In this document: piece by piece, positions 9,158 to 49,203 of the stretch
How the letters are laid out: every line of letters starts with the position of its first letter
Numbering within the stretch: position 1 is the stretch's first letter
Notes under the pieces: model-generated
Told to the model about the DNA's origin: nothing
The model's database searches: none
What the model saw: the letters and a program-made list of their open reading frames with translations, nothing else
Origin: Opitutia bacterium
Lineage (GTDB): Bacteria; Verrucomicrobiota; Verrucomicrobiia; Opitutales; T3Sed10-336
DNA length: 64,000 bases
Direction: 5' to 3'
Assembly (NCBI GenBank): GCA_050506795.1
Contig: JBJHCF010000001.1
Span: forward strand, 60,556-124,555
Position numbers and translations under genes: made by a program

Positions 9158-10266
9158 AGTATATCGATGAATACCGTGATGCCGCCGACGCCAAACGCCT
9201 GGCTGAAGCGATCGAGAGTATTGTCACCCGGCCGTGGAATATCATGGAGGTGTGCGGCGGGCAGACCCACGCCATTATTCGGTTTGGGGTGGAGCGGCTT
9301 CTGCCGAAGGAGGTCAACCTGATCCATGGCCCCGGTTGCCCGGTTTGTGTGACGCCTCTGGAGCTGATTGATCGCGCCATCGAGCTGGCCCGGCGTCCCG
9401 AGGTGACTCTTTGCTCCTTCGGAGACATGCTCCGGGTTCCCGGCTCGGAATGCGATCTCCTGACGGTTAAAGCGGACGGCGGCCAGGTGAAGGTGGTCTA
9501 TTCTCCCCTGGACGCCCTGGAATTCGCCCGGGCGAACCCGAATCGGGAAGTGGTTTTTTTCGCGGTGGGATTTGAAACCACCGCCCCCGCCAACGCCTTT
9601 GCTGTGTTTCAGGCGAAACGGCTGCAGGTGCCGAATTTTTCCCTGCTGGTTTCCCACGTGCTGGTTCCTCCAGCCATGGAGGCGATCTTAGGATCGGCCG
9701 AGAATCGCGTTCAGGGTTTCCTCGGCGCCGGGCATGTCTGCACCGTAATGGGTCTCGAAGAATACCGGCCGTTGGCCGAACGGTATAGGGTTCCGATTGT
9801 GGTGACCGGTTTTGAGCCGATCGATATCCTGCAGGGCATCTTCATGTGTGTGAAACAACTGGAGGAGGGCAGGGCGGTAGTGGAAAATCAATACGCCCGC
9901 TCGGTGCGGCCGCAGGGGAATCCGCACGCGGTGGAACTGATACAGGAGGTGTTCGAACCCGGTCCACGCCAGTGGCGGGGAATCGGAGAAATTCCCCTGA
10001 GCGGACTACATTTGCGAGCGCCTTACCGGGAATTCGATGCCGAGCGGCGGTTCACTTTGCAAAACCGCACCAGCGAGGAACCATCCGAATGTATCAGCGG
10101 CCTGGTTCTGCAGGGACGAAAGAAACCATTTGAATGCCCGGCCTTTGGCACGCGCTGCACTCCGGAGCGTCCGCTGGGTGCTCCCATGGTCTCGGCGGAA
10201 GGCGCCTGCGCGGCTTATTATCGGTATCGAACTGTTGGTGACACGGGGGAGGCGGTGAATTCATGA
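9154..10266 (+). CDS. hypD: hydrogenase formation protein HypD
   Basis: [17 protein letters not shown] and FETTAP motifs. TTG start overlaps the hypC stop (TTGA). Confidence 0.9.
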
Positions 10267-11357
10267 GTGATTCCTCCGGCAAACCTTCTGGAACTCAAGG
10301 GAGCCTTCCGGAGAGCGGGGTCACCTGTCCGGTTCCGCTTTCCAAATGGAGCGCGGTACAGATGGCCCATGGAGGCGGGGGGCGCGTTTCCCGGGAGTTG
10401 ATGGAGAGTCTCTTTCTTCCGGCGTTTTCCAATCCGGCGCTGGATATTCTGCATGACGGCGCCCTGCTCACTTTGGGCGCGGAGCGGTTGGCTTTCACTA
10501 CCGACTCCCACGTGGTCAGTCCATTGTTTTTTCCCGGCGGCGACATCGGCAAACTGGCGGTTTGCGGCACGGTGAACGACCTGGCGATGTGTGGTGCGCG
10601 CCCGCTCTGGCTGAGCGCCGGATTTATCATGGAGGAAGGTTTGCCCATGGAGACCCTGAAAAGGGTGGTGGATTCCATGCGCGAAGCAGCGGCTGAGTCC
10701 GGGGTTCAACTGGTCACGGGGGATACCAAGGTGGTCGATCGAGGGAAGGGAGACGGACTGTTTATCAACACCGCCGGTATCGGTCGGATCGAGGGCCGGG
10801 GTGTCTCGCCCGGTGAGATTCGGTCGGGAGACGTGATTCTGCTCAGCGGCGACCTGGCGCGGCACGGCATCGCCGTTATGGCTCAGCGCGAGGATCTGGC
10901 TTTTGAGGGCGATATCGAAAGCGATTGCGCGTCGCTCGTGGACCCGGTGATGGCCCTGCTGGAAGCGGAGATTGAAGTCCATTGCCTGCGTGATCTCACG
11001 CGAGGAGGGCTGGCGACGGCCCTGGTGGAATTGGCCCGCTCGGCCGGATGGCAGTTTCGCATCCGCGAAGGGCTGTTGCCGGTGCAGGAAACCATTCGCG
11101 GCGCCTGCGAAATTTTGGGACTGGACCCGCTTTACGTGGCGAACGAAGGCCGTTTCGTGGCCATTCTTTCCGAACACCACGCGGCGCGTGCCCTGGAGAT
11201 CCTGCGGACCTTTGCCACCACAGCCGGCGCGCGAATCATCGGACAGGTGCACAGCTTGTCGAAAAACGCCTCCGGCGGGGTCACTCTGACCAGCTCAATC
11301 GGAGTCGACCGGGTGGTCGACTTTCTCAGCGGCGAGCAGCTGCCCCGGATCTGCTGA
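10263..11357 (+). CDS. hypE: hydrogenase expression/formation protein HypE
   Basis: AIR-synthase-like fold and the C-terminal PRIC motif. ATGA overlap with hypD. Confidence 0.9.
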
Positions 11358-11546
11358 TAGGGCGATAAGGGGATAGGCGATAGACGATAGGGGGATAGGC
11401 GATAGACGATAGGGCGATAGACGATAGACGATAGGGCGATAGACGATAGACGATAGGGGGATAGGCGATAGACGATAGGGGGATAGGCGATAGACGATAG
11501 GGGGATAGGCGATAGACGATAGGGCGATAGACGATAGGCGATAGAA
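11358..11546. repeat. tandem array of 25 GATA-initiated 7-8 nt units (GATAGGGG/GATAGGC/GATAGAC; 22-nt higher-order unit)
   Basis: Read directly. It begins at the first base after the hypE stop. Units parsed by hand sum to 189 nt. Confidence 0.95.
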
Positions 11547-11612
11547 TCACCGGCAACCAATGTCTCTTCTTACCTTTCCACCCAGCTGCTCCAGATACGT
11601 CCTTTGTCCACT

Positions 11613-11654
11613 AATATCGTCTATCGCCTATCCCCCTATCGCCTATCGCCTATC
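11613..11654. repeat. inverted partner of the GATAG array (CTATCGCCTATCCCCCTATCGCCTATCGCCTATC)
   Basis: Reverse complement of the same words, 66 nt after the forward array. Overlaps the last codons and stop of the four-helix-bundle gene. Confidence 0.9.
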
Positions 11655-12178
11655 TCTTTCTTTCTTGCTTCACGGGCTTCTTTCGACTCGTAGAGGGGAT
11701 GATCCGGCGTGAGGGTGATGAGGAATTGGTGCCGCAGGTTGTCGGCGGCCGAGCGCGCCTGGCGTAGTTTTCTTTCCTGGCTTGTCAGGTGGCGTTTGCC
11801 CTGTACCGGGCCGCTTTCAATTTGAGCCGCCCAGGCGGCGAGTTGACGAACGCAGGAATCCGCGGTGTCGTGGATTGTTTTCAGTCGGTCCTTCGCGGGA
11901 AGCAAGCCATGCCGGTCTTTTACCACCAGAACCATGGACCTGACTTCTCCAGCGGATCCACGCGCGTACCCAAGGAAGGTGAGAAGTTCGTTCGTGGTCA
12001 CCCGGTCGAACCCTTCAGCGATATTGTTGGAAACCGAAAGCGCGGCCCGGTCGAGCTGCCCGCGAAAGCCCGTTGTGAAGAGTCGGCTGTGAGCTTCAAA
12101 AAGGTCGAGCACTTGATTGTAGAGTCGAGAGCCCGTTTTCCAGGCGGGCAGTTCGTGAAAATGGCGATATCGGGGCAT
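11636..12178 (-). CDS. four-helix-bundle protein (23S rRNA intervening-sequence protein / Avd-like family)
   Basis: The last 180 aa of track ORF 11636..13192 match the family signature (FHELPAWKTGSRLYNQVLDL, SVSNNIAEGFDR, FLGYARGSAGEV). ATG at 12176-12178. The upstream part of that ORF is antisense to msrBA. Confidence 0.75.
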   Translation of the reverse strand: MPRYRHFHELPAWKTGSRLYNQVLDLFEAHSRLFTTGFRGQLDRAALSVSNNIAEGFDRVTTNELLTFLGYARGSAGEVRSMVLVVKDRHGLLPAKDRLKTIHDTADSCVRQLAAWAAQIESGPVQGKRHLTSQERKLRQARSAADNLRHQFLITLTPDHPLYESKEAREARKKEIGDRR

Positions 12179-12247
12179 TAAATCGGGGGTTCGGGATTGA
12201 TTTCTCCTGGCGGGTTGCTTTTGAAACGAGTCGGGATACGATGGAAC

Positions 12248-13213
12248 ATGCACATTTTCGGGAAAGTCGCGAGGGGATTTGTCCTGAGTCTGCTGTTGAC
12301 CGGGGTGATATTGGCTTTTACGGGGTGTTCTGAGGCTGCCATGAGCGAACAAAAAGACGACGACGGATTCAATCAACTGACGCCCGAGGAAGAATACGTG
12401 ATTCTTCGCAAGGGCACCGAACGGCCTGGCACGGGCCGCTGGCTCGACCATGAGGAAAAGGGCACTTACGTCTGTCGGCGCTGTGACGCGCCCCTTTACG
12501 AATCGAGCTCCAAGTTTGATTCCGGATGCGGCTGGCCGAGTTTCGACGACGAAATCGCGGGTGCGGTGGAACGGCTTCCGGATCCGGACGGACGGCGAAC
12601 CGAGATCGTTTGTGCCAATTGCGGAGGGCATCTGGGTCACGTTTTCCTGGGCGAGGGATTTACCGAAAAGGACACCCGGCATTGTGTGAATTCGATCTCC
12701 ATGGATTTTGTGCCCGCCGGACAATTGGTGCGGAAACAGACGGCGATCTTTGCCTCCGGCTGTTTCTGGGGGACGGAGTACTTTCTGCAGCGCAGCGAGG
12801 GCGTCCTTTCCACCGAATCGGGCTATATCGGCGGTACCACTCCGAATCCCACCTACAAACAGGTTTGCACCGGAGAAACCGGACACGCGGAAGCGGTACG
12901 GGTGGTTTTTGACGCCGACAAAACCGATTACCGCACCCTGGCCAAACTCTTTTTCGAGACCCACGACCCGACCCAGGTCAACCGTCAGGGGCCGGATATC
13001 GGGACTCAATACCGATCCGGCATTTTTTATCTGGATGAAGATCAGAAGGCGATCGCCGAGGAACTCATAGCCGTTTTGCGCGCCAAGGGAATCGACGTGG
13101 CGACGGAGGTCACCGCGGCCTCCACCTTCTGGGTGGCTGAGGACTACCACCAGGATTACTACACCAAAACCGGCGGCACCCCATACTGTCACGCCTACCG
13201 TCCGCTCTTCTAG
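12248..13213 (+). CDS. msrB/msrA: peptide-methionine sulfoxide reductase MsrB-MsrA fusion, predicted lipoprotein
   Basis: Lipobox LAFTGC after a signal peptide. MsrB Zn and catalytic motifs (CRRCDAPLY, CGWPSF, CANCGGHLGHVF). MsrA motif GCFWG. ATG 12248 chosen over the track start at 12197. Confidence 0.88.
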   Translation: MHIFGKVARGFVLSLLLTGVILAFTGCSEAAMSEQKDDDGFNQLTPEEEYVILRKGTERPGTGRWLDHEEKGTYVCRRCDAPLYESSSKFDSGCGWPSFDDEIAGAVERLPDPDGRRTEIVCANCGGHLGHVFLGEGFTEKDTRHCVNSISMDFVPAGQLVRKQTAIFASGCFWGTEYFLQRSEGVLSTESGYIGGTTPNPTYKQVCTGETGHAEAVRVVFDADKTDYRTLAKLFFETHDPTQVNRQGPDIGTQYRSGIFYLDEDQKAIAEELIAVLRAKGIDVATEVTAASTFWVAEDYHQDYYTKTGGTPYCHAYRPLF

Positions 13214-20900: not shown

Positions 20901-20957
20901 ACCAAAACCAAGAACGACGAACCAAGAACAAAGAACCAAAAACCAAGAACGAAGAAA
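20901..20957. repeat. ACCAAGA heptamer array (complement GGTTCTT family)
   Basis: accaaa|accaaga|acgacga|accaaga|acaaaga|accaaaa|accaaga|acgaaga. Lies immediately downstream, in gene orientation, of the minus-strand gene ending at 20958. Confidence 0.85.
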
Positions 20958-27100: not shown

Positions 27101-27102
27101 CT

Positions 27103-27166
27103 GGAGGGCAACGCTCCGCCGTTGCCGCCCGATCGGCAAATCGGAAGCGGCGGAGCGTTGCCCTCC
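27103..27166. repeat. perfect 19-bp inverted repeat with nested hairpin (GGAGGGCAACGCTCCGCCG ... CGGCGGAGCGTTGCCCTCC)
   Basis: Arms at 27103-27121 and 27148-27166 with a 26-nt loop. The left arm contains a 7-bp hairpin (27107-27126) that recurs with compensatory changes at 40407-40433. Confidence 0.85.
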
Positions 27167-27226
27167 ACGTAACTCCTGATTGGTAACGGCTAGGCCGGAT
27201 TATGGATCAGGAGTCTCCCGCGCGGC

Positions 27227-33734: not shown

Positions 33735-33765
33735 GGAACCACGAAACACACAAAAGGCACGAAAT
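33735..33765. repeat. CACGAAA-word repeat, solo copy (GGAACCACGAAACACACAAAAGGCACGAAAT)
   Basis: Matches the consensus of the inverted-repeat pairs at 40149, 43864 and 45881. Confidence 0.8.
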
Positions 33766-36050: not shown

Positions 36051-36082
36051 CTTGGTTCTTGGTTTGGTGTTTTTGGTTTGGG
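36051..36082. repeat. CTTGGTT heptamer array
   Basis: cttggtt|cttggtt|tggtgtt|tttggtt|tggg. Same word family as 20901-20957 (complement) and 46811-46840. Confidence 0.8.
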
Positions 36083-36146: not shown

Positions 36147-36176
36147 GGGGGAAACAACGAAACACACGAAAATGAG
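36147..36176. repeat. CACGAAA-word repeat, solo/truncated copy
   Basis: GGGGAAACAACGAAACACACGAAAATGAG. No inverted partner was found downstream. Confidence 0.8.
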
Positions 36177-36234
36177 TTGCAGGATGACTGAACCCATTAA
36201 CCGACAACGGATAACCGATAACCGGACTTCGCTC

Positions 36235-36274
<40 letters not shown>

Positions 36275-40148: not shown

Positions 40149-40469
40149 GGAACAACGAAACACACGAAACACACGAAAGACACGAAATGAGGGGAATGAA
40201 ATGATATTGAATGGGATCCTCGGGTGGAGGCACGGAGATGGAGGCGGGCAGCGATGTCGGCGTTCGCGGGATGGTGTTCAGGCAGAGGTACGAAGATAAT
40301 GAAGAAGGGTATTGGCCACAGAGATCACAAAGAACACAGACTGGTGAATTTAGCTGAGAACCGACAACGTTTGCGCGCCGATGCGGTAGGTGACGATTTC
40401 CAGTCCGGCGGCACGGGCGGAGCCGTGCCCTCCAGGATTTTTTCGTGCTTTTCGTGTGTTTCGTTGTCC
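40149..40469. repeat. CACGAAA-word inverted-repeat pair enclosing a ~250-bp spacer
   Basis: Left arm 40149-40188 (with an internal CACACGAAA duplication). Right arm 40437-40469 (ATTTTTTCGTGCTTTTCGTGTGTTTCGTTGTCC). Confidence 0.85.
40407..40433. repeat. second copy (reverse orientation) of the GGAGGGCA..GCTCCGCC..TGCCGCC hairpin element
   Basis: The reverse complement GGAGGGCACGGCTCCGCCCGTGCCGCC differs from 27103-27129 at 4 positions. All 4 are compensatory within the 7-bp stem. Confidence 0.8.
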
Positions 40470-41994: not shown

Positions 41995-43136
41995 TGCGTG
42001 TCCTACTTGCCGCGTATTTTTCCGTGGTGATCACCGCCGGTGTCCTGGTGGCGACGGGGCTGGTGCCGGATTGGGGGCGGTGGTACTCCAATCACCTGGC
42101 TTACCGCTGGCAGACGGAGGCGCTGCTGAGCGGGTCGGTGTCGATCGGTACCGAGGCGCGGTACCTGGTGTGGGACAAGGTCTGGGCGAATGGAAACGTG
42201 CAACAGGCCTGGGGCCTGGGCGTGCCGTTCTGGAGGTTGCCTTTTGAAGCGGCGGCCGGAGTTTTGGGGCTGGGCATGTTTCCCGACCGAATCGCGTTCG
42301 GGGTGGCGTGGGCATCGGTTGTTTTTCTTTTGATGCGTCTGTTCGTTTTGCCGGGAAACACGAAAGACCCGATGGCGTTCTTGAGACAGAAGCCGGAAGC
42401 CTTTTGTGCGTTTGTCGTGTTGGCGCTGTTTCCCCCTCTGCTCACGATGTGCCGGTTCCGGTTCGTGGTGTACGAGGAGGCGGCGGCTTACAGTTTCCTG
42501 GCGGGGATGGGGTTGTTCGCCGGGACCTTGCTGTTTTTCCGTCGGCCCACGTTGCGGGTGTTCCTGGTGCTGGCCGCCCTGGCGGGTCTGGCCCCGTTCG
42601 TGCGTCCGACGTTGTTGGCTTACGGCGTGACAACAATGCTGGTGATCTCGTACGGCGCGTGGCGGCTCGGATGGTCCTATCCGAGGATGGCCGCGGGGCT
42701 GGGCTTGTTCGCGCTGGGGAGCGTCCTGCTTTTCGCCTCCAATCATGTCCGGTTTGGAGCCCCGCTTGAGTTCGGGCACGGAGTCAACTTGAACACGGTC
42801 GATTCAATGCGCTACACGAGCCGGTTCGATCATCCGTTCCGTTCGGAGCCGCCTGGCTCGGCCGCGGTGGAATTGACCTCCGCGTTGTTTGTCGCCGGGA
42901 ATACGTTCACCGGATATCAATGGTACGCCCCGGAATTGATTCCGGGACAGTCGTCCACGCATCGGTGGCGGGAGTTTTATTTCAAGACGTACGATGTAAG
43001 CTTCGCCCTGATGCTGGTTATTGCCTGGGGATGGGGGATTTGGGGGAAAGGACGAGGGTGGAGGGGCGAGGGTGGAGGGGCGAAGGAGAAGGGGCGAGGG
43101 GCGAGGGGGGTGGTGCGTGGCCGGAGATTGGGGTGA
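41994..43136 (+). CDS. polytopic membrane protein, N-terminal part of a split paralog of 44031-45854 (GT-C-like, putative glycosyltransferase)
   Basis: ATG overlaps the upstream stop (TAATG). Aligns along its whole length with the N-terminal two thirds of the downstream paralog (WGLGVPFWRLPFEAAA, MFPDRIA, FVRPTLLAYG, GAPLEFGH). Ends in a Gly/Arg/Glu tail encoded by the 14-nt repeat. Confidence 0.65.
   Translation: MRVLLAAYFSVVITAGVLVATGLVPDWGRWYSNHLAYRWQTEALLSGSVSIGTEARYLVWDKVWANGNVQQAWGLGVPFWRLPFEAAAGVLGLGMFPDRIAFGVAWASVVFLLMRLFVLPGNTKDPMAFLRQKPEAFCAFVVLALFPPLLTMCRFRFVVYEEAAAYSFLAGMGLFAGTLLFFRRPTLRVFLVLAALAGLAPFVRPTLLAYGVTTMLVISYGAWRLGWSYPRMAAGLGLFALGSVLLFASNHVRFGAPLEFGHGVNLNTVDSMRYTSRFDHPFRSEPPGSAAVELTSALFVAGNTFTGYQWYAPELIPGQSSTHRWREFYFKTYDVSFALMLVIAWGWGIWGKGRGWRGEGGGAKEKGRGARGVVRGRRLG
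43053..43110. repeat. G-rich tandem repeat: CGAGGGTGGAGGGG x2, degenerate third unit, then CGAGGGG x2
   Basis: Read directly. Units at 43053-43066, 43067-43080, 43081-43094, 43095-43101 and 43102-43110. Confidence 0.92.
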
Positions 43137-43863: not shown

Positions 43864-44001
43864 GAAACAACGAAACACACGAAAGGCACGAAAAAATACA
43901 GAGGAGAAAATTTTGATTCAGAAAACCACCTTGCTGACTCTTCTTCAAAAAAGGCACAGATTGTTATCCATTTTCGTGCCTTTCGTGTGTTTCGTTGTTT
44001 C
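43864..44001. repeat. perfect 31-bp inverted repeat GAAACAACGAAACACACGAAAGGCACGAAAA with a 76-nt spacer
   Basis: Arms at 43864-43894 and 43971-44001, verified base by base. Lies between the two membrane-protein paralogs. Confidence 0.95.
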
Positions 44002-45880: not shown

Positions 45881-46002
45881 GGGAACAACGAAACACACAA
45901 AAGGACTATGTTTTATGGGTGGAAAAGGAAATATTCCAAGGAGGGAAAGCCACCGCGTGATGTCATCCATTTTCGTGCTTTTTGTGTGTTTCGTTGTTTC
46001 CC
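45881..46002. repeat. CACGAAA-word imperfect inverted-repeat pair (~60-nt spacer)
   Basis: Left arm GGGAACAACGAAACACACAAAAGGAC (45881-45906). Right arm ATTTTCGTGCTTTTTGTGTGTTTCGTTGTTTCCC (45969-46002). Confidence 0.85.
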
Positions 46003-49171: not shown

Positions 49172-49203
49172 AAATCCAAAATCCGCAATCCAAAATCCAA
49201 AAT
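49172..49203. repeat. AAAATCC heptamer array
   Basis: aaatcc|aaaatcc|gcaatcc|aaaatcc|aaaat. Ends 8 nt before the dnaE2 ATG. Confidence 0.85.

Follow-up and report, generated by a model that had tools for sequence, protein, structure and literature searches.

S23p/four-helix-bundle genes bracketed by heptamer repeat arrays look like inserted cassettes akin to rRNA intervening sequences

Abstract

The 64-kb stretch of Opitutia DNA analysed here (hereafter referred to as the window) contains, between hypE and msrAB, a long tandem array of GATAG-type words and a shorter inverted partner that reaches into the 3' end of a small gene for an S23p/four-helix-bundle (FHB) protein. We consider it probable that the array and its partner represent the 3' repeat module of an S23p/FHB insertion cassette resembling the intervening sequences (IVSs) of rRNA. 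Beyond this locus, arrays bracket PF05635 genes of two divergent subfamilies, from six or more phyla, in nearly every case. The package of an S23p gene and 7-base tandem repeats recurs in many bacterial phyla and has the look of a cassette that was inserted, is possibly mobile and is akin to rRNA intervening sequences. The cross-phylum pattern appears not to have been described previously, and no paper generalising the link between S23p/FHB genes and heptamers was found in the open-access literature.

Results

A GATAG array and an inverted partner separate hypE from a convergent FHB gene

The hypE gene (10263–11357, plus strand; Pfam AIRS/AIRS_C) runs directly into the far arm of the repeat, which comprises 26 tandem GATA-initiated units of 7 or 8 nt on the plus strand (11356–11546; units obtained by splitting at GATA). 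These are GATAGAC (ten copies), GATAGGC (six copies), GATAGGGC and GATAGGGG (four copies each), GATAAGGG (one copy) and a terminal GATAGAA. Analysis by TRF revealed a higher-order period of 22 nt with 8.3 copies, 95% matches and a score of 308. A previous sequence-only reading of this DNA had described 25 units beginning at the base after the hypE stop; the array itself and its 22-nt organization are borne out, whereas its start has to be moved into the stop codon and the count raised to 26. That is, the first word covers the last two bases of the hypE TGA (11355–11357) and the next codon in this frame is TAG. The HypE C-terminus ...GEQLPRIC* is identical in relatives lacking the array, and the hypE stop is therefore native. 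The far arm makes up 0.3% of the window, yet it contains 25 of all 49 GATAG pentamers present therein.

A unique spacer of ~68 nt, the prospective loop (11547–11614), separates the far arm from the near arm, which consists of 5.5 GATAG-type units on the minus strand (11615–11654) with five CTATC words at positions 11621, 11628, 11636, 11643 and 11650. The CTA at 11636–11638 is the TAG stop codon of the FHB gene (11636–12178, minus strand, 180 aa), whose terminal ...E-I-G-D-R-R-stop is encoded by the repeat words of the near arm, exactly as had been proposed from the sequence. On the other side, the gap between the FHB start codon and the divergent msrB/msrA gene (12179–12244) is free of arrays according to sequence, ORF and Pfam analysis. 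At the window locus the head-to-tail 7/8-nt units lie between two stop codons and an array of the same word is found nearby on the opposite strand, as in heptameric simple sequence repeats (SSRs).

The near arm is complementary to the far arm in several registers, extending over 40 nt at 98% or 45 nt at 93%, and the predicted fold of region 11340–11680 has an energy of −135.6 kcal/mol as compared to −109.7 ± 5.8 kcal/mol for shuffled sequences (z = −4.5). According to these predictions the two blocks could pair to form a long imperfect hairpin, in agreement with the earlier suggestion. On the plus strand of the far arm, the 7-nt period places a TAG in each of the three frames within three units, while the minus strand is completely devoid of stop codons, and a minus-strand ORF (11132–11560) spans the array. 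Both convergent genes, hypE and the FHB gene, first run into the GATAG sense of the array.

To exclude that the array is an assembly artefact, we inspected an independent short-read assembly (Logan SRR31311414), where two contigs carry the hypE and FHB genes in identical form and each stops within the array. The same array edges are thus recovered from an independent read set, ruling out an artefact and showing that the array is real. These short-read contigs, which break inside the array, are the only other data for the locus; variation in unit number was seen in homologous cassettes.

Several other identities were rejected. The units are contiguous and without spacers, which rules out a CRISPR array and confirms what the sequence-only reading had stated in this respect. 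An intrinsic terminator is ruled out by the lack of a U-tract and of any terminator-like site at the array. A known RNA family is excluded as well, as an Rfam search of the window at gathering thresholds returned neither rRNA nor any other family; a permissive search yielded only sub-threshold plant miRNA-precursor models, i.e. generic long hairpins. No tRNA genes were found. A G-quadruplex role, as proposed for GGGAATC repeats, is not favoured: judged by sequence, the G-runs are 17–19 nt apart with one per 22 nt, and a canonical quadruplex would not be expected.

The neighbouring gene belongs to the S23p/FHB family

The FHB gene matches PF05635 (23S-rRNA-IVS/S23p) with an E-value of 8.8e-18 and 64.9 bits (cut-off 33.8) as well as TIGR02436 with 63.1 bits (cut-off 24). 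Proteins of these families are alternatively named 23S rRNA intervening sequence protein, S23p or 'four helix bundle' (FHB). The only relative with a solved structure is XCC0516 of Xanthomonas (PDB 2GSC, five chains; E = 5e-8). No FHB paralogue exists elsewhere within the 64-kb window, none of the PADLOC defence-system models matches the protein, and no homologue was found in the phage collection.

A homologue search with the window protein returned 4875 matches, which define a large Verrucomicrobiota/Opitutaceae subfamily. The best 120 of these 4875 homologues are 174–263 aa long (most of them 174–190 aa), cover 92–100% of the query and share a conserved C-terminal extension with the motif FLxxLxPxHPLYxSxEARxARGE, after which comes a variable tail of 3–12 residues. 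As this 65-residue extension is common to the homologues of the subfamily, its origin from translational read-through can be ruled out. Many of the tails finish with IADRR, IANRR, IANSQ, IDDSQ or PDRQ, which is what NATAGNN heptamers encode.

ATAG/CTAT arrays accompany the FHB genes of the subfamily

To assess whether arrays are a regular companion of these genes, we analysed 80 metagenome loci that were selected by protein similarity alone, 77 of which carry complete FHB genes. An array was defined as at least three words at a spacing of 6–8 nt. Arrays occur at a density of 3.5/kb across the 260 nt preceding the start codon and 2.6/kb across the 330 nt following the stop codon, as compared to 0.015–0.02/kb in 277 kb of far flanking sequence. 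ATAG/CTAT arrays are thus enriched more than 100-fold within ~300 nt of the FHB gene ends in these 77 loci. The FHB stop codon is TAG in 62/77 genes, usually within an ATAGCCN heptamer, and TAGCC[AG]A is present in 32/77. Tetramer profiles show ATAG at the stop codon followed by CTAT at +50 to +125, each ~25-fold above background, and another ATAG-then-CTAT pair is located upstream of the FHB start codon. This 5' repeat module, present in most homologues, is missing at the window locus, where region 12179–12300 carries no array. ATAGCC[AG] accounts for 65% of all words and occurs in 73/77 loci; the ATAGGCG and ATAGACG words of the window share this ATAG core as minor variants.

Folding of the 3' modules yielded a median z of −2.1 relative to shuffled sequences with 53% of the loci below −2, as compared to −0.05 and 10% for control flanks. 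For 11 loci in cas context, RNAalifold returned a consensus hairpin of 20 pairs with ~90% of the cells paired, including one compensatory AU-to-GC pair in three sequences. In these loci, the near arm is almost invariant and the loop is variable. The ungapped inverted-repeat score of the arms, however, was barely above the controls, indicating that the arms of most homologues are only loosely complementary, and therefore a protein-binding model fits the relatives about as well as an RNA stem. Comparison of duplex energies between a locus' own arms and arms of other loci provided no discrimination, and is uninformative because the words are common to different loci. Orthologous loci have conserved flanks and differ by indels of whole units within the arrays. 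Overall, the FHB cassette occupies at least 31 distinct genomic neighbourhoods.

One of these neighbourhoods is the CRISPR adaptation module. In at least 13 metagenome loci (L096, L075, L081, L084, L086, L087, L089, L092, L093, L101, L123, L134 and L141) the FHB cassette resides between cas1 and cas2. Locus L096 (9–4942), the sole cas-context locus scanned with Pfam, encodes Cas12b (C2c1), a Cas4-Cas1 fusion and Cas2, which corresponds to type V-B. The first CTAT word overlaps the TGA stop codon of cas1, and the 3' hairpin ends just ahead of the cas2 ATG. Apart from this, many contigs bearing the FHB subfamily of the window are only 1–3 kb long; the arrays seem to break up short-read assemblies systematically, which may hide cassettes in metagenome-assembled genomes (MAGs).

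Plasmid-borne FHB genes from several phyla are flanked by arrays on both sides

We further searched a plasmid collection by tblastn, using the window protein (14 records) and a divergent FHB protein (the ORF at locus L013; 28 records). Eighteen loci were fetched, which together with a second gene on pNPUN01 gave 19 FHB genes from Cyanobacteriota, Bacteroidota, Chloroflexota, Gemmatimonadota and Spirochaetota hosts. Period-7 and sometimes period-8 tandem arrays are present within ~100 nt of both ends in 19/19 genes. The array pairs are mostly in inverted orientation, so that most plasmid homologues show the enclosure of the S23p ORF by inverted repeats that is typical of IVSs. Their words are locus-specific, e.g. 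AGTAGGG/TCCCTAC, AGGGAAC/CTGTTCC, GGTTTAA/TAAACCT, and CCAGTTA with ACTGGTC in 12.6 copies. Within four 50-kb plasmid regions, arrays on both sides were detected for 5/5 FHB genes as compared to 2/145 other annotated genes (Fisher p = 3.5e-8). The Riemerella region contains two such arrays in all, both flanking the FHB gene, and 6/7 arrays on pNPUN01 flank its two FHB genes.

Word cores are common to FHB proteins that are 54–69% identical and come from differing hosts and contexts: the GATTT core is found in Gloeocapsa, Chlorohelix and Planktothrix, the ATGAAG core in Chlorohelix and Pseudanabaena, the GGGTGT core in Calothrix and N. punctiforme, and the CAGT core in Euhalothece and Chondrinema. 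It is thus the clade of the FHB protein, and not the host or the adjacent genes, that the word core tracks. The sequence-only reading, which had described the array for a single locus and left its origin unclear, missed both the regular flanking of FHB genes at their two ends and the link to the 23S rRNA IVS. In fact, arrays are neither unique to the window locus nor absent beside other FHB genes, as they occur in the 77-locus set and at all 19 plasmid genes.

Plasmid pTS1 of Treponema saccharophilum carries a 288-nt array of 41 AGGAAAG units upstream of its FHB gene (L175, 48–335), followed by 6.6 copies of TCCGCTC, and 11 copies of CTCTCCG downstream; this expansion exceeds the 26 units of the window. 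In the Chlorohelix plasmid, a hairpin module of ~110 nt (GGATTTT words, spacer, AATCCAA words) flanks the FHB gene as a direct duplicate (L170, 269–431 and 827–928). It looks as if either a pre-existing hairpin was doubled on insertion or the cassette carries two copies.

An empty site lacks gene and arrays together

The DUF1156-Swt1 operon offers a comparison of empty and occupied sites. The slot is empty in Meiothermus, with a gap of 6 nt between the two genes. The same slot holds an array-FHB-array element of 414 nt in Gloeocapsa and of 671 nt in Chlorohelix, and in these occupied slots DUF1156 ends with ...EF* or ...GF*, its last codons and TAG stop being built of the array word GGATTTTAG. 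As the empty slot lacks both the FHB gene and the arrays, it follows that the arrays come with the gene and provide neighbouring genes with stop codons. The generation of the stop codon of the upstream DUF1156 gene from array words is the same phenomenon as observed at the window locus. FHB genes are also wedged within operons between RND adaptor and permease, DrmD and MmeI, nrdB and nrdA, and helicase and methylase genes.

For the window locus itself no direct empty site was found, as there is no sequenced relative with the same hypE-msrAB synteny; the test via HypE relatives failed because synteny downstream of hypE is not conserved. The closest relative, whose HypE is 81% identical and which carries no FHB gene, has a degenerate four-word remnant, TGATAGGCGGAGGGGATGAGGGAATAGAC, directly after the hypE stop. 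Hence, the hypE-side array of the window could be older than the FHB gene or unconnected with it. Neither a target duplication nor a recombinase for insertion of the cassette was identified.

The XisH/XisI gene pair turns up at related positions. On a Tolypothrix plasmid it occupies the DUF1156-Swt1 slot (L179, 1342–2078), and on pNPUN01 an FHB gene directly adjoins it (L167, 26797–28051). Small selfish-looking genes seem to use common insertion slots.

GATAGRC arrays also occur without an FHB gene

The reciprocal question is whether GATAGRC arrays imply the presence of an FHB gene. Searching species-representative genomes with the pattern GATAGRCGATAGRCGATAGGG, we obtained 70 loci from more than ten phyla. 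Many of them consist of an array, a spacer and an inverted array between genes, and some MAGs contain many copies. A broad FHB profile detected an FHB gene at 1/70 loci (L013, Pfam-confirmed), and tblastn together with the subfamily HMM found none at these loci. As 69/70 GATAGRC loci lack an FHB gene, the association of FHB genes with arrays runs one way only. The association proposed in the sequence-only reading is accordingly strong when viewed from the gene (TAG stop in 62/77 genes, more than 100-fold enrichment, 19/19 plasmid genes), but does not hold when viewed from the array. In addition, Nostoc plasmids harbour ORF-less array pairs, some of which use the same word as a nearby FHB cassette, and the window itself contains further word-repeat hairpins without an FHB gene.

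Discussion

Relation to known repeat systems

The closest parallel is the S23p-bearing IVS in the 23S rRNA of Coxiella burnetii and Leptospira, which is regarded as selfish (PMC4990558). In Coxiella, the S23p ORF is preceded by two to three GACAGAT heptamers whose number varies between strains, the inverted repeats form a stem, and RNase III makes its 5' cut at the start of the first heptamer (PMC4990558). The window element shares the PF05635 family, adjoining heptamers of variable copy number and an inverted-repeat stem with these IVSs. However, it is located between hypE and msrAB rather than in helix 25 or 45 of a 23S gene, its array has 26 units instead of two to three, and the stop codon of its ORF lies inside the repeat. 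Unlike in the rRNA IVS, the ORF is not enclosed in the stem because both arms of the window element are located 3' of the ORF, i.e. downstream of it rather than around it, with nothing upstream. RNase III cleavage has been demonstrated in Coxiella, whereas for the window it may occur on the potential 40–45-bp duplex.

In many bacteria, heptameric SSRs are more frequent than expected, for which slippage of the polymerase has been suggested as an explanation. In Xanthomonas there are 186 GGGAATC arrays, including 70–75 convergent inverted pairs per genome, with related GGGGAYT arrays in Nostoc (Rehm et al. 2015, PMC4692102). As at the window locus, these are tandem 7-nt intergenic units, in 2–26 copies, that form convergent inverted pairs and vary in length between strains at a kept position. 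Moreover, a distance of 6 nt separates GGGAATC repeat #15 from bccP, and the repeat runs into the start of XCC0516, which is the crystallised FHB protein (PMC4692102 supplement). They differ from the window in that its word is GATAGRC/ATAGCCN and in the G-quadruplex role proposed for them; PMC4692102 draws no link to S23p/FHB genes. The STRR heptamers of cyanobacteria and the TAACTGA repeats of Beggiatoaceae (PMC4679880) are likewise short, tandem, intergenic and close to gene ends, but they are mainly direct repeats upstream of start codons, and no association with a gene family has been reported. REP/REPIN elements with their RAYTs resemble the window element as intergenic hairpin doublets that often lie just past stop codons in many copies per genome; they are, however, single imperfect palindromes with a known tyrosine transposase, and none is linked to the window element. 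Finally, integron gene cassettes also combine a small promoterless-looking ORF with an imperfect 3' inverted repeat, attC, in varied contexts, whereas FHB cassettes lack attC core sites, integrase and attI and are scattered singly within operons instead of being stacked.

An IVS-like insertion cassette and its alternatives

We favour, as the probable explanation, that the GATAG array and its inverted partner form the 3' repeat module of an IVS-like S23p/FHB insertion cassette. This reading builds on the regular flanking by arrays across the family, a stop codon that forms part of a repeat word, a word core that goes with the protein clade, the joint absence of gene and arrays at the empty site and the variation in unit number. 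The cassette would consist of a small PF05635 gene and oppositely oriented tandem arrays of 7-nt words, occupying intergenic slots, and would have come in by insertion. The far arm may subsequently have been lengthened by replication slippage in steps of 22 nt, i.e. of three words, because its higher-order units are near-identical. At the RNA level, by analogy with the Coxiella 23S IVS, the arms may pair as a 40–45-bp duplex that serves as a substrate of RNase III or in another way insulates or ends the convergent hypE and FHB transcripts. The stop-rich sense orientation, in turn, would end read-through translation in any frame from either gene. Of the three origins left open by the sequence-only reading (slippage, boundary of a mobile cassette, or protein-binding array), the cassette boundary fits best in light of the empty DUF1156-Swt1 site, and slippage is plausible for the length of the far arm because whole-unit indels separate orthologous loci.

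The array could also be a generic heptameric SSR, in which case slippage would favour 7-nt units, the adjacency to the FHB gene would be incidental and the hairpin would do no more than terminate transcription in both directions or stabilise 3' ends. This has to be considered, since heptameric SSRs and convergent inverted pairs are over-represented in Xanthomonas and Nostoc (PMC4692102), 69/70 GATAGRC loci lack an FHB gene, many of them lying between large genes and several forming convergent pairs, other short-period arrays exist in the window away from any FHB gene, and a degenerate word remnant follows hypE in the FHB-less relative. We nevertheless judge it unlikely: incidental adjacency is difficult to reconcile with the more than 100-fold enrichment of arrays at FHB gene ends, the flanking of 19/19 plasmid FHB genes as opposed to 2/145 neighbouring genes, the word core that follows the protein clade across hosts and the empty site lacking both gene and arrays, and the stem is not followed by a U-tract. 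A different possibility, in line with the protein-binding array named in the sequence-only reading, is that the words are iterons, that is candidate DNA or RNA sites of a pentameric FHB protein serving autoregulation, packaging or mobility, the inverted layout reflecting site orientation with no stem being required. Most homologue arms indeed keep their words yet pair loosely, word core and protein clade vary together, the loop is variable whereas the near arm hardly changes, arrays typically have 3–8 units, and the solved relative is reported to be a homopentameric toroid (PDB 2GSC; PMC4990558). On the other hand, PF05635 is not known for sequence-specific recognition of nucleic acids, and ORF-less array pairs occur in stretches without a nearby FHB gene. 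As an explanation in its own right we give this reading a rather low probability as well, but it is compatible with the cassette explanation and not exclusive of it.

Least of all do we expect a REPIN- or MITE-like non-autonomous element, in which the arrays would serve as terminal repeats and a transposase from another locus (e.g. a RAYT or the TnpA of IS200/IS605) would mobilise them in trans, with the FHB gene as a neighbour or passenger. The arm-spacer-arm layout, the many copies in some MAGs (~17 loci in one Thermomicrobiales MAG) and the ORF-less pairs on Nostoc plasmids would suit such an element. However, copies within one genome have arm spacers that resemble each other neither in sequence nor in length, the arms are tandem words without internal palindrome rather than REP palindromes, no transposase is located next to the loci examined, and the window contains a single copy, which makes this identity highly improbable.

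The IVS-like cassette may have wider significance. If gene and arrays constitute one cassette, this would tie the over-representation of heptamer repeats in intergenic DNA to the nature of the S23p/FHB genes of IVSs. It would also define a new small insertion element that slips into operons, including CRISPR adaptation modules and defence operons, with its own stop codons and RNA stems, and would account for the breaking of short-read assemblies at FHB genes. Tentatively, and with more doubt than for the locus itself, one may go further and speculate that S23p/FHB genes with flanking inverted heptamer arrays are a widespread unrecognised class of insertion cassettes, of which the rRNA IVS would be a special case and ORF-less heptamer hairpins (STRR-type repeats, the GGGAATC pairs of Xanthomonas and the GATAGRC pairs in more than ten phyla) miniature derivatives, and that the pentameric FHB protein recognises its own heptamer word.

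Further repeat elements in the window

A second inverted-repeat family is present in the window at 43864–44001, 45881–46001 and 40152–40467, with additional single arms at 36156–36171 and 33740–33755. Its arm, GGAAACAACGAAACACACGAAAGGCACGAAAA, is made of 8–9-nt words, and the two arms are separated by 76–77 nt or by 262 nt. Each element begins a few bases past the stop codon of a plus-strand gene, with no FHB gene nearby. The 16-mer core of this family has 10 matches as compared to 0.03 expected. Further short-period arrays are located at 20901–20956, 36055–36081, 43053–43108, 49172–49203, 36198–36224 and 36236–36272; among them are eight copies of ACCAAGA, whose inverse word TTGGTTC is found 15 kb away, eight copies of CGAGGGG, 4.6 copies of AAATCCA, 3.9 copies of TAACCGA and a (TC)18 run. 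The genome thus seems to be generally rich in repeats of 7–9-nt words. A 26-nt inverted repeat at 27102–27167 consists of TGGAGGGCAACGCTCCGCCGTTGCCG and its complement, and a near-identical arm, ggagggcaacgctccgtcgttgccg, lies downstream of hypE in the relative with 81% identical HypE (L153, 5222–5246), which points to a separate dispersed hairpin family common to related genomes.
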